Counted from the stretch's first letter, positions 39,423 through 42,143 are shown. The stretch: 45,974 nucleotides of DNA from Limisphaerales bacterium (GCA_046090965.1 JBJTAU010000268.1:1-45974); one strand, 5' to 3'. Numbers and translations: made by a program. Notes: generated by a model not told the origin, from the sequence alone.

Positions 39423-42143
39423 AAGCTTGGTTTCTCCTTCCATCTGCCCGCGCGTCACGCCGAGTTGATGATGCAGCTTCAACTCGCGCCAGAGCTGTTC
39501 GCCGGTCAGTTCGCCGCGCAGCAACGCCCGGTAGCGCGCGATGGTCTGCGTGACTTCCTCCGGCGACTCGTTCACGAACTCAATGCGGAAACGCCGCACG
39601 CCCAGCGCCTGCAAGCGCCCGACGTATTCCGCGCCGGTCTGCGCGCGGGCGTTGAAGACCGTGTTCCGGCAGCCGGCGTCGGCTTTCAGCGGATGCTCCT
39701 GGCCCACGCGGTCGCGCACGCGCACGTCGTGGCGGTCGCACGGACGGCCGCAGTCGCGGAAGTCCTTGCCTGCCGAGAGGAACGCGCAGAAGACGCAGTG
39801 CTCCATGTGAAACATGGGCATGTGCTGGTGAATCGTAACCTCGAACCACTCCGGCCGCGCGCCGCGCAGGAGCGTTTCGAGTTGCGTGAAGTTCAGATCG
39901 TAGCTCGCCGTGAGCCGCTCCAGGCCGAAGCGGGACATGAAGTAATCCGCCGTGAGCGTGTTGGCGACGTTGAGCGAGAAGTCGCCGACTCGGCGGCAGT
40001 CGGCGAAGAAGTTGAGGTGGTCGTAGTTGCGGACGAGGTAGCCGTCAGCGTCGCACGAGCGGACCTGCTTGAGAATCCAGTCCTCGCCGGACTTCGTGAT
40101 GCGCGGGGGAGCGACGAAGATTGCCGATTGCCAATTGCCGATTGGCGATTGGCAGCCACGCGCGGTGCGGAAGGTCGTGACAGCCTCGCGGTAGCGCTTC
40201 GGGTCTTCGAAGTCGCAGTAGATCGTGGTGGCCCCGCAGCGCAGCGCGGCATCGAGTTGGGCGAGATTGCGGACGAGAGGGATGAGTGAAGGGGTCTCGG
40301 GTCTGGCGTCTGGGGTCTGGGAAGCCGTGCTCGGCCACTGTGGTGACGGCGTAGCCAATGAGGTTCGAATGTCACCCCCTAGACCCGAGACGCTAGACCC
40401 AAGACCCTCCGTGAGCCACCACCGCTTCGGTTGCGCGCGTTGGCGTTCGAGCTCGGTGACGAGTTCGCGGCGGAGGCGGTTGAGTTCGCTTACCGGGAGG
40501 ATGACTTCGCCTTCGAGTTGGCTGCGCAGCTCTCCGAGCTTGAAGGGCGTGCCGCCGAGGCGACCGCGCTGGTCGCGGAGCTTTTCCGGCGTGAGCGGTT
40601 GCTTCTCGGCGCGGGCGAGCGGGGCGGTGGATTGCGCCTGCGCGATGTGACCCAGCTCGTCGCGGGCGATGAGCGTGAGCGGCGTGCCCACGCGACCGTG
40701 AGCCTCGAAGCTGACGGGGCGCTGAAAGCGAGGCGCGTCGCCGGCGAAGGTGGCGCGAACGTGCTTCTCCAGCTCGGGGTCGCTGGTCTTCCACAGCACA
40801 TCGCCGACATGGACGCGCGCGAAGTCCACCGCGCCGGGCATGAAGGTCAGCGCGGCTTCGGATTGGCGATTGGCGATTGGCGATTGGTGAATCTGAAAAA
40901 CGCGGCCACCCTCTTCGTCGTCGAGGCCGTGGCCGGCATCGAAGACGATGCCATCACCAGCCTTCAGCCTGCCGGAGAGGCGGATGTGGACGCGGTCGGC
41001 GGCAACACGCGTGACTTCGCCGACGAACGCGCCGCGCTTCTTGCCGACGCGCGCGTGGACGAGGCGTTGGTTGTCGATGCCCTCGAACCACCCGGTGTGG
41101 AGGCCGCGGCTGAAGGCCATCTCCAACTCGTAACGTCGAGGGTCGAGGGTCGAGGGTCGAGGGTCAGAAGCTGGCTGGCTTTCGACTCTCGACTCTCGTC
41201 CTTCGACCAGCGCATCCAGCGCCTGCCGGTAGATGCGCGTGATGCTGGCGACGTATTCCGGCGACTTCAGCCGGCCCTCAATCTTAAGCGACGCGACGCC
41301 GCTGCGGACGAGTTCCGGCAAGACTTCGAGGCCGGCGAGGTCTTGCGGTGAGAGCAAGTAACTGCGTCCGCCCAGTTCGACTTTCTTGCCGTCGCTGATG
41401 AGTTCGTAAGGCCTCCGGCAGGCCTGCGCGCACTCGCCGCGATTCGCGCTGCGCCCGCCCAGCGCCTCGCTGGTGAGGCATTGGCCGGAGTAGGCAACGC
41501 AGAGCGCGCCGTGGACGAAGACCTCCAGAGGGAGTGTGGAGTTTGGAGTTTGGGGTTTCGGGTTGGCGTTCGCTACCGCCGGTGTTTCCAAACTCGAAAC
41601 ACTAAACTCGAAACTGTTTTGAATCGCCGTGATTTCATTAAGCGAGCTCTCGCGCGCGATGACGACGAGGTTGCAGCCGAGTTCCTTCGCGAAGGCCACG
41701 CCCGCCGCGCTAGTGATGGTCATCTGCGTGCTGGCGTGGATGGGGAAGTCCGGCGAGAGGCGGCGGATGAGGCGCGCGATGCCGATGTCCCGCACGATGG
41801 CGGCGTCCACGCCCGCGGCGATGATGCTGCGGAGGTATTCCTCGGCGGCGGCGAGTTCGTCGGCGAAGACGAGCGTGTTGAAGGTCACGTAGCCCTTCAC
41901 GCCGCGCCGGTGGAGGAACTCCATTATCCGAGACAGATCGGCCTCGGTGAAGTTGTGCGCGCGCATCCGGGCGTTGAAGCGGTCGAGACCGAAGTAGATC
42001 GCGTCCGCACCGTTCTCGACGCCGGCCTTGGCGCATTCCCAATCGCCGGCGGGCGCAAGCAGCTCGGGCAATGCCGGCGTCGTGCCCGTGGAAGCGGACG
42101 GCTGCGGGGCGGAACCAGACGCTGGCTGTGCTGCGGTGGACAT
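39411..42143 (-). CDS. peptidase U32 family protein (two U32 modules plus DUF3656-like middle region) carrying five in-frame repeat insertions
   Basis: ATG 42143 (MSTAAQPASG...). ELLAPAGDWECAKAGVENGADAIYFG, EVFVHGALCVAYSGQCLTS, and a second module with MPMFHMEHCVFCAF. The track start at 42233 is an upstream extension. Confidence 0.85.
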   Translation of the reverse strand: MSTAAQPASGSAPQPSASTGTTPALPELLAPAGDWECAKAGVENGADAIYFGLDRFNARMRAHNFTEADLSRIMEFLHRRGVKGYVTFNTLVFADELAAAEEYLRSIIAAGVDAAIVRDIGIARLIRRLSPDFPIHASTQMTITSAAGVAFAKELGCNLVVIARESSLNEITAIQNSFEFSVSSLETPAVANANPKPQTPNSTLPLEVFVHGALCVAYSGQCLTSEALGGRSANRGECAQACRRPYELISDGKKVELGGRSYLLSPQDLAGLEVLPELVRSGVASLKIEGRLKSPEYVASITRIYRQALDALVEGRESRVESQPASDPRPSTLDPRRYELEMAFSRGLHTGWFEGIDNQRLVHARVGKKRGAFVGEVTRVAADRVHIRLSGRLKAGDGIVFDAGHGLDDEEGGRVFQIHQSPIANRQSEAALTFMPGAVDFARVHVGDVLWKTSDPELEKHVRATFAGDAPRFQRPVSFEAHGRVGTPLTLIARDELGHIAQAQSTAPLARAEKQPLTPEKLRDQRGRLGGTPFKLGELRSQLEGEVILPVSELNRLRRELVTELERQRAQPKRWWLTEGLGSSVSGLGGDIRTSLATPSPQWPSTASQTPDARPETPSLIPLVRNLAQLDAALRCGATTIYCDFEDPKRYREAVTTFRTARGCQSPIGNWQSAIFVAPPRITKSGEDWILKQVRSCDADGYLVRNYDHLNFFADCRRVGDFSLNVANTLTADYFMSRFGLERLTASYDLNFTQLETLLRGARPEWFEVTIHQHMPMFHMEHCVFCAFLSAGKDFRDCGRPCDRHDVRVRDRVGQEHPLKADAGCRNTVFNARAQTGAEYVGRLQALGVRRFRIEFVNESPEEVTQTIARYRALLRGELTGEQLWRELKLHHQLGVTRGQMEGETKLARG
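40119..40155. repeat. in-CDS compact hairpin (GATTGCC)x3 / (GATTGGC)x2
   Basis: GATTGCCGATTGCCAATTGCCGATTGGCGATTGGCAG. Translated on the minus strand as CQSPIGNWQS. Confidence 0.75.
40291..40407. repeat. in-CDS hairpin of GGGGTCT heptamers
   Basis: (GGGGTCT)(CGGGTCT)(GGCGTCT)(GGGGTCT)GGG at 40291-40321 pairs with CCCCCT(AGACCCG)(AGACGCT)(AGACCCA)(AGACCC) at 40375-40407. The loop is about 53 nt. Confidence 0.8.
40861..40893. repeat. in-CDS solo arm (GATTGGC)x3 GATTGGT
   Basis: Translated as SPIANRQS. Same unit as 40141-40154. Confidence 0.7.
41134..41208. repeat. in-CDS hairpin of GGGTCGA heptamers
   Basis: CGTC(GAGGGTC)x4 at 41134-41165 pairs with TCGACTCTCGACTCTCGTCCTTCGACC at 41182-41208: 21 Watson-Crick pairs, 3 G-T and 1 T-T over 25 positions. 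Confidence 0.8.
41531..41614. repeat. in-CDS imperfect hairpin of GGAGTTT heptamers
   Basis: (GGAGTGT)(GGAGTTT)(GGAGTTT)(GGGGTTT)CGGGTT at 41531-41566 pairs with GTTTCCAAACTCGAAACACTAAACTCGAAAC at 41584-41614. Confidence 0.7.

Follow-up and report, generated by a model that had tools for sequence, protein, structure and literature searches.

The DNA considered here is a 45,974-bp contig (the window; GCA_046090965.1 JBJTAU010000268.1:1-45974; 65% G+C) from a metagenome-assembled genome of a Limisphaerales bacterium (Verrucomicrobiota). Its minus strand carries a gene of the U32/DUF3656 family that contains five short repeat elements in frame, designated S1 to S5, and whose 3′ end is overlapped by a sixth element, K (Table 1). 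As an original prediction for this stretch had stated, the open reading frame (ORF) runs uninterrupted through 910 codons, and its product is a 100% match to the annotated 910-aa protein P0001. Pfam places the protein in the U32 family (Peptidase_U32, 287.7 bits against a cut-off of 22.4) and adds a DUF3656 match of 91.3 bits. According to NCBIfam, the similarity is to TrhP/UbiU in the N-terminal half and to UbiV in the C-terminal half; the TrhP, UbiU, and UbiV scores all fall below their equivalog cut-offs, and no exact function is therefore named.

We fetched and aligned 164 orthologous loci (L001 and so on, the window being labelled WIN). The U32 protein is 69–83% identical to its orthologs, with which it shares hundreds of invariant residues, and long invariant blocks flank each insert. 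The gene order TPR–U32–IscA–GFO_IDH is kept in the closest relatives. A decaying pseudogene or an assembly artefact might be suspected, as the source is a metagenome-assembled genome and repeats are prone to mis-assembly; the intact 910-codon frame, the invariant residues, the conserved gene order, and the recurrence of the same elements at the same sites in independent assemblies speak against this and make either scarcely credible. Several loci (L001, L005, L006, L012, L013, L021, and L071) bear public record labels such as Akkermansia muciniphila, Bifidobacterium, or Dongiaceae on contigs of verrucomicrobial type, which are probably taxonomic mislabels of metagenome bins. The orthologs from heterocystous and filamentous cyanobacteria (L051, L052, L063, L067, L073, and L076) are 60–65% identical in their best segment to the verrucomicrobial protein, a high value for two phyla that suggests horizontal transfer of the gene.

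The elements follow a common plan. Tandem Repeats Finder resolved a 7-nt unit repeated in tandem about four times, then a spacer, and then the complementary unit, again in about four copies, the two arms acting as inverted repeats. Period 7 is over-represented far beyond chance: the window has 17 such arrays and one of period 8, and the related loci (1.1 Mb) have 282 and 35, respectively. S1 encodes residues ~176–203 (NSFEFSVSS...KPQTPNST) and S2 the entire 25-aa linker at residues 312–336 (LVEGRESRVES...RPSTLDPR). S3 encodes QSPIANRQS in a beta-turn, and S5 encodes CQSPIGNWQS. S4 lies in the 43-aa linker that joins DUF3656 to the second U32 half, and its 56-nt loop contains two small inner hairpins. 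The original prediction had counted five in-frame hairpins with five different unit sequences. Five in-frame repeat elements are indeed present, four of them hairpins; S3 is a one-armed array that has no second arm and forms no hairpin on the mRNA strand. Moreover, S3 and S5 share the unit GATTGSC, so that S1–S5 are built from four unit families. The role assigned to the sixth element was borne out: the arms of K (39334–39364 and 39394–39424) are 90% complementary, and one of them provides the last U32 codons, L-A-R-G, together with the TAA stop. Orthologs with K end in ...GETKLARG, whereas those without it have different C-termini.

Table 1 Coordinates and properties of the U32/DUF3656 gene, its repeat elements, and further features of the window. 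Fold z-scores are relative to dinucleotide shuffles; the linker baseline is the modal length in array-free orthologs.
Feature	Position	Description	Context	Period-7 arrays	Fold z (mRNA strand / opposite strand)	Linker baseline	Linker in window	Addition
U32/DUF3656 gene	39411–42143 (minus strand)	910 codons + TAA	ORF list, sequence, Pfam, NCBIfam
S1	41531–41615	hairpin, arms GGAGTTT x4 / AAACTCG x3.7, loop ~30 nt	U32	41531–41558 / 41590–41615	−3.2 / −3.6	9 aa	28 aa	~20 aa (about 19)
S2	41135–41208	hairpin, GTCGAGG x4.4 (copies 100% identical) / TCGACTC-type arm	U32	41135–41165 / 41182–41198	−5.2 / −8.2	about 14–23 aa	25 aa	none (element = whole linker)
S3	40861–40887	one-armed tandem array, GATTGGC x3.9	U32	40861–40887	−0.03 / −3.4	9 aa	14 aa	~5 aa
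S4	40291–40408	longest hairpin, GGGGTCT x4.4 / CCCTAGA x4.6	U32	40291–40321 / 40377–40408	−6.5 / −8.35	about 24–30 aa	43 aa	~20 aa
S5	40119–40153	short quasi-palindrome, GATTGCC/GATTGGC units	U32	40119–40151	−2.9 / −4.8	about 12 aa	16 aa	~4–5 aa
K	39334–39424	hairpin of 9-nt units (CGCGGATAA)	U32–iscA spacer		−9.2 / −8.3			
A	1961–2039	second copy of the 9-nt-unit family of K	same arms as K, unrelated loop					
B	6579–6710	hairpin, GCGAAGG-type units	intergenic					
C	18185–18259	hairpin, arm family of B, other loop	intergenic					
D	19430–19459	one-armed heptamer array, CGCGTTT x3.9	inside ArsS radical-SAM gene; encodes NAKRETRDAG					
E	20254–20368	CGTGGTG x3.6 / CACGCAC x3.7, outer GGCGAAGC stems	intergenic; overlaps first ArsS codons					
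F	22764–22841	TTAGTGA units	intergenic; overlaps prfB stop codon; all six frames stop-closed					
H	34833–34934	AAGTTCA x4.9 / TTGAACC	intergenic; ends 3 nt before ATG of UDG-family gene					
I	35956–36058	AACGTCC / CGTTGAA	intergenic					
M	42986–43084	TTAGTSM units	intergenic, convergent genes; overlaps STAS gene 3′ end					
ArsS gene	19280–20272 (minus strand)	330 aa	contains D					
Release-factor ORF	22837–23868	PCRF + RF-1 domains						
RF2 frameshift site	23908–23914 (−)	programmed +1 frameshift	release-factor gene					
Common motif of H	34924–34937 (+)	TTGAACCTCC(C)GCC	before ATG of UDG-family gene					
Common motif of J	38712–38725 (−)	TTGAACCTCC(C)GCC	before ATG of GFO_IDH gene					
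In-frame duplication	45713–45769	30-nt unit x1.9, 81% matches	DNA polymerase III delta-subunit gene					

The alignment shows where in the protein these elements sit. The five sites coincide exactly with the segments of variable length and sequence in all 165 orthologs, with linkers of 0–49, 0–55, 9–45, 20–88, and 6–42 aa for S1 to S5, respectively. Measured against the baseline, the elements at S1 and S4 and, to a smaller extent, those at S3 and S5 lengthen their linkers (Table 1), as expected of the clean insertions that had been proposed; S2 departs from that proposal, the element there being the linker itself. Element-free orthologs have short linkers of unrelated sequence, and in close relatives the elements are different ones. 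Non-repetitive DNA encoding homologous peptides in distant orthologs, which would speak against insertion, was not found among the aligned loci. An idealised S2 translation (ESRVES...PSTLDPR) searched against 5.8 billion proteins, with bias filters that suppress such queries, returned 13 short ORFs and no Pfam domain.

Searches of the Protein Data Bank by sequence and by profile found no solved relative of the U32 protein, and we used an AlphaFold model built from 28 sequences, of moderate confidence (mean pLDDT 62). In this model all five sites fall between secondary-structure elements, in coil or in regions with pLDDT <50, in agreement with the predicted location in loops. Low confidence (<50) extends over long stretches at S1 (180–201), S2 (316–369), and S4 (572–614) and is confined to three residues each at S3 (424–426) and S5 (666–668). 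S1 lies between a helix (168–177) and a strand (206–211), S4 in a 48-residue coil leading from DUF3656 to the second U32 half, and S5 between a helix (650–662) and a strand (674–677). The profile matches also break at these sites: Pfam splits the U32 match into three stretches, the best of which begins at residue 202, and the best TrhP and UbiU stretches of NCBIfam stop at residues 177–180, where S1 starts.

Arrays are common at these sites across the family. The 165 U32 genes hold 223 heptamer arrays, all but about two of which lie at the N-terminus or at S1–S5. In the 150 high-G+C loci, array density was 0.52/kb in U32, 0.03/kb in other coding sequences (CDSs), and 0.14/kb in the remaining DNA, so that U32 is 17 times denser than neighbouring CDSs. 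The earlier suggestion of a hotspot therefore stands as a description; no evidence of targeted insertion was found in these loci. Each site carries an array in 14–35% of orthologs, drawn from 17–34 unit classes, and one-armed arrays are in the majority. Arrays are absent altogether from 71 of the 165 orthologs, and just four, the window included, carry one at each of the five sites. Two arrays occurred together at a site in 43 cases, and in 24 of these the pair was complementary to within one mismatch (<1% expected by chance). Altogether, the 282 arrays in the related loci fall into 115 unit classes with a strongly skewed distribution. Recurring families, such as GTCGAGR at S1, S2, and S5 and GATTGSC at the N-terminus, S2, S3, and S5, retain their arm asymmetry and orientation from site to site and from genome to genome. 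Among relatives with 80–85% amino acid identity, S1 holds GCGAATT (L161–L163), GTGTTCA (L082 and L001), GGTCAGC (L081 and L002), or GTGACAC (L084).

The same loops also hold repeats of entirely different kinds. In Calothrix PCC 7103, a perfect 28-nt palindrome, GTAGAGACGCGATTAATCGCGTCTCTAC, is present in both S4 and S5, and Scytonematopsis and Trichormus carry CCCCCTTCCCT..AGGGAAGGGGG in S2. The Opitutae-like locus L077 has a GTAGGGGC...GCCCCTAC palindrome with GTAG...CTAC ends in S4. Hairpins without heptamers occur in S4 and S5 of Limisphaerales relatives as well. That other lineages have unrelated repeats of their own in these loops is the decisive result for permissive loops: it is predicted by loops that tolerate any sequence and not by a function tied to heptamer hairpins. 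Since the palindromes of the cyanobacteria and of L077 are of known dispersed-repeat types, they also indicate that pre-existing repeats do enter these loops. Together with the variable segments, the coil and low-pLDDT positions, and the profile breaks, these findings support the proposal that elements survive only at permissive loops. The non-heptamer hairpins of the relatives are G+C-rich and were seen in S4 of L162, L164, L084, and L081 and in S5 of L161. One of them spans ~190 nt and encodes SPPSPPSGERAGVRG...LTPTLSPDGGEGE; others encode GRAGSPLPA...GAHGVTRPT and VGRASCPP...GGQDARPT, so that several repeat classes coexist in these genomes.

A selected function would place the hairpins at work in mRNA or DNA, as translational pauses where the domains of an Fe-S enzyme meet or in mRNA stability or processing, or would make the loops useful as flexible linkers. 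The very high array density in U32 relative to other CDSs, the recurrence of the hairpin architecture at the same sites with different sequences, and the positions of S4 exactly between domains and of S1 just upstream of the cysteine motif are what such a function would lead one to expect. The pairing itself does not bear this out. Across seven S2 homologues, a sample of low power, 0 of 24 stem pairs showed a compensatory change, and the covariation term is unfavourable; pair-breaking changes fall in the first arm and the second is nearly invariant, so that decay is one-sided. S3 is unfolded on the mRNA strand, and all five elements fold better on the antisense strand, via G:U pairs, a bias that element-free linkers share. 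Considering also the many array-free orthologs, the few with all five sites occupied, and the unrelated repeat types in the same loops, which point to tolerance, we regard a selected function as distinctly unlikely. An antisense RNA was considered from the strand asymmetry and rejected, given that array-free linkers show the same bias and intergenic elements have no consistent orientation. Because the sense strand is C-rich, the bias in element-free linkers is probably compositional.

Elements already in place are inherited. Among relatives with 80–85% amino acid identity, S2, S4, K, M, and J2 are 79–87% identical, loops included, at orthologous positions: S2 recurs at its site in L161, L162, L081, L087, L085, and L090, S4 is 79% identical over 121 nt in L163, K is 86% identical over 100 nt in L161, and M is 87% identical over 108 nt in L164. 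Sharing of a unit family at a given site drops steeply as core identity falls. Furthermore, the states of different sites are mutually incongruent, all four combinations of S1 and S4 states being found among WIN, L164, L161, and L162. L086 and L093 are 98–100% identical in nucleotide sequence over codons 0–340 and 82–93% thereafter, and differ in S4 and S5 only; sliding-window identity between L113 and L012 dips locally around S1. The incongruence is thus at least partly the product of recombination, L086/L093 and L113/L012 being mosaics. A fast local turnover of elements had also been considered and was dropped once sliding-window identity had revealed these mosaics. Within arrays, the S2 copies are 100% identical, and yet every unit has its mismatch to the other arm at one and the same phase, a pattern that probably reflects slippage within the arrays.

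Slippage also underlies a further alternative, a contingency (phase-variation) switch in which the gain or loss of one unit of a 7-nt array would turn the gene off or on. The unit length is no multiple of three, each array has ~4 copies, and the gene holds up to eight arrays, all of which would suit such a switch. Nevertheless, a long open frame is kept across the arrays in 164 of 164 orthologous loci (consensus assemblies, in which minor variants are possible), the copy numbers are low for efficient slippage, and the arrays lie in linkers in the middle of a gene for a housekeeping-type enzyme rather than at the 5′ end of a gene for a surface or restriction protein. Such a switch is highly improbable.

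The repeats inside U32 belong to a pool that extends over the window. A gene map based on third-position G+C and Pfam has ~39 intergenic spacers, of which about 12 contain elements built in the same way, 75–132 nt long (A, B, C, E, F, G, H, I, J/J2, K, M, and N). It is the arm unit that defines a family: A/K, B/C, and F/G/M have common arms and unrelated loops. The two settings share units, 15 of 43 extragenic unit families being found inside U32 in some genome; the unit of H, for example, recurs at site S3 of L002. Across genomes, the number of in-gene arrays correlates with the number in the flanks (rho 0.21, p 0.018). The need to be stop-free acts as a genuine filter of moderate strength: of 60 reading frames in intergenic elements, 26 are open, and F and M, which have stops in all six, could not survive inside a gene. 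Rfam returned no match in the window at gathering thresholds, the sub-threshold hits being to generic long-hairpin models, mostly of microRNA precursors.

Some features of the intergenic elements stand on their own. F, K, and M overlap the stop codons of prfB, U32, and the STAS gene, respectively, and cover the last codons of these upstream genes, so that C-termini are often rewritten by elements. H and J end in a common motif, TTGAACCTCC(C)GCC, immediately ahead of the ATG of the genes that follow (UDG-family and GFO_IDH, respectively); the window has two matches against 0.08 expected, and the motif may shape the 5′ untranslated region or ribosome access. E and S4 have a nested appearance, with heptamer arms followed by one or two small G+C-rich loop hairpins, and E has outer non-heptamer stems (GGCGAAGC/GCTTCGCC). 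This nesting hints at growth around, or insertion into, older hairpins.

The reading that we favor, with a probability of roughly two in three, is that the elements in U32 are passengers, selfish or neutral copies of palindromic repeats of the genome that persist only in parts of the protein where any sequence is tolerated and that are then inherited, recombined, and slowly degraded. Their source would be the genome's own 35–130-nt palindromic repeats, which normally reside in intergenic spacers and consist of arms of ~3–5 tandem copies of a 7-nt unit (sometimes 8–9 nt) around a non-conserved loop. U32 would offer six stretches that are nearly unconstrained in sequence and length, namely the five internal linkers and the N-terminus. 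A repeat landing in frame and stop-free in such a stretch would be translated as a low-complexity loop with little harm, whereas the same event elsewhere in U32, or in most other genes, would be purged by selection. Once resident, an element would pass vertically and drift in a roughly neutral manner; its arrays would be remodelled by slippage, one arm often being lost, and homologous recombination within the gene would swap elements between lineages. Entry would probably occur by insertion or copying of pre-existing repeats, copying being supported by the unit families common to several sites and by the dispersed-repeat types in other lineages, and the elements are presumably near-neutral for the protein.

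Several points weigh against this passenger reading. Translation of the U32 inserts is a premise. No target-site duplications, which a MITE would have besides its terminal inverted repeats, flank the elements in the with/without pairs examined, in which close pairs differ in whole linkers and offer no otherwise-identical empty site. The 46-kb window encodes no transposase or reverse transcriptase, and no RAYT (an IS200/IS605-like tyrosine transposase), among the ~31 proteins scanned. Copies with the same arms have unrelated loops (A/K, B/C, F/M, L089-S2 versus L086-S4, and L087-S2 versus L087-S5), unlike the prediction of simple whole-element copy-and-paste. In some orthologs a perfect array fills a linker of baseline length, as at S1 of L012 with (TTCGCAC)x3.9 in 27 nt, and so resembles replacement or local expansion rather than insertion. 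Finally, array density per nucleotide is several-fold higher in linkers than in intergenic DNA, which is not obvious from tolerance alone, even though occupancy per slot is similar (14–35% of linkers and about a third of spacers).

Much of this would fit a local origin, in which arrays and hairpins arise in place in unconstrained DNA, slippage favouring 7-nt units and fold-back (quasi-palindrome) template switching copying one arm onto the other; the linkers would then be occupied as the sole unconstrained DNA within the gene. Conserved arms with unrelated loops, the array in the baseline-length linker of L012, and the lack of a transposase in the window and of target-site duplications agree with this, as do the majority of one-armed arrays and the internally homogeneous arms that mismatch their partners at a constant phase. 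In ArsS orthologs, too, array units differ by two transitions in every copy (AACGCGA versus AATGCGG). By the account that PMC4679880 gives of the work of Mrazek et al., heptanucleotide repeats are the commonest class of long simple-sequence repeat in most bacterial genomes and are attributed to polymerase slippage. On the other side, the same unit families, arm asymmetry, and orientation recur across sites and genomes, 282 arrays share just 115 strongly skewed unit classes, complementary pairs at one site are far more frequent than chance in a way that slippage alone does not produce, and dispersed-type palindromes in the same loops of cyanobacteria and L077 show pre-existing repeats entering. 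We consider a local origin possible, if doubtful.

An undescribed hairpin-directed process in Limisphaerales that makes or spreads heptamer-armed hairpins seems unlikely. One form that it could take is an enzyme or a pathway of replication by which existing hairpins would be lengthened or replaced symmetrically, 7 nt at a time. If it exists, a site with one hairpin would keep attracting new ones, and the process would explain why array density is higher in linkers than in intergenic DNA, why arms are conserved and loops variable, and why some elements look nested, with outer stems, heptamer arms, and an inner GC-rich hairpin. Co-option of the copies inside genes, as linkers or pause sites, might have followed.

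U32 is not alone in the window in carrying an internal element, contrary to what had been claimed: the ArsS radical-SAM gene holds the heptamer array D. Its product has 330 aa against a norm of 314, and the excess includes a 12-aa loop insertion encoded by D. Other elements are found in the same loop of ArsS orthologs (for example, MRNAECGMRN and RRGEEA...PPDLGGY), which makes ArsS a second landing pad for repeats in the window. Two other genes have features of separate interest. The release-factor gene has, upstream of the ORF at 22837–23868, an RF2 programmed +1 frameshift site, a classical feature of prfB, in which GGAGG is followed by TTT CTT TGA C; a short upstream ORF begins at ATGTTCGAC. 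In the DNA polymerase III delta-subunit gene, the repeat duplicates 10 aa in frame and has no relation to the heptamer elements.

In-frame selfish palindromes of this kind reveal where a protein has real freedom to vary, and U32 provides an unusually clean loop map, with six loops and at least three unrelated repeat types in different lineages. By lengthening the protein and adding low-complexity segments, the repeats may mislead annotation, domain calls (through split profile matches), and structure prediction, and they yield spurious short ORFs elsewhere in the genome. They also offer a tractable case of how short repeats without a conserved sequence spread and of why 7 nt is favoured.

The closest known parallel is provided by intragenic REPs, palindromes tagged by GTAG or CGTC that are mostly intergenic and also occur, in frame, within known genes (Di Nocera et al. 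2013, PMC3733652). Their intragenic dimers encode 20–30 aa, some genes have two insertions, and they are most numerous in the verrucomicrobium Opitutus terrae; the authors argue for flexible linkers or loops and for neutrality (PMC3733652). The window elements resemble them in being short, palindromic, mostly intergenic, and also in frame in gene linkers, and a palindrome with GTAG...CTAC ends occupies S4 of the U32 ortholog in L077. Unlike tagged REPs, they have no GTAG/CGTC terminal tag or 5–13-bp stem; their periodic arms of 20–35 nt are tandem heptamer arrays of many different units, and they number five or six per gene instead of one or two. The U32 gene is absent from the target list of PMC3733652. 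As multiple in-frame REP insertions per gene are already known from O. terrae (PMC3733652), the original prediction overstated the uniqueness of the case.

Its comparison with the palindromic elements of Rickettsia (RPEs) holds as one of kind, in that the host frame is preserved and the host gene conserved. In the account that PMC10969869 gives of the work of Ogata et al. 2000, RPEs are selfish palindromes found in frame in many unrelated functional Rickettsia genes, translated, and judged compatible with the fold. The window elements likewise sit in frame inside an otherwise conserved functional gene. RPEs proper are ~150 bp long, each family with a conserved peptide; here the arm unit alone defines a family, the loops are unconserved, and the peptides are of low complexity with a 7-aa period. 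No sequence relationship to RPEs was found, and none was expected. REPINs, which are mobilised by RAYTs, consist of two inverted repeat copies that form a hairpin with a variable spacer and are non-autonomous and mostly extragenic (Bertels and Rainey 2011, PMC3116915). The inverted arms around a variable loop are common to both; the REP of a REPIN is a small palindrome with a conserved sequence recognised by RAYT, whereas the arms in the window are tandem arrays.

Period 7 has precedents of its own. As PMC4679880 relates from Mrazek et al. 2007, heptanucleotide repeats are the most abundant class of long simple-sequence repeat in most bacterial genomes, slippage being the proposed cause; these are direct repeats, and multiple-of-three units are favoured in coding regions. 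The window elements differ in having paired inverted arrays that form hairpins and survive in frame. They also differ from STRRs, the heptanucleotide repeats of heterocyst-forming cyanobacteria that Vioque reportedly described in 1997 and that are said to occur inside the RNase P RNA gene as well. STRRs are tandem 7-nt units with several unit sequences, dispersed in the genome mainly as direct arrays, and in the in-gene case they lengthen a dispensable part, an RNA helix. The period is common to both, and the phylum, the units, and the protein-linker setting are not: the host here belongs to the Limisphaerales, and its 115 unit classes include no dominant, fixed consensus of the kind that STRRs are said to have.

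The phenomenon is therefore already known from RPEs and from the REPs of O. terrae, and the established picture of such inserts as tolerated passengers is unchanged. The tandem-heptamer hairpin build, of which no description for Verrucomicrobia was found in the literature searched, is a new detail. New as well, relative to these systems, are the occupation of five or six loops in one gene and the finding that, across 165 orthologs, the same loops have collected unrelated repeats in different lineages.

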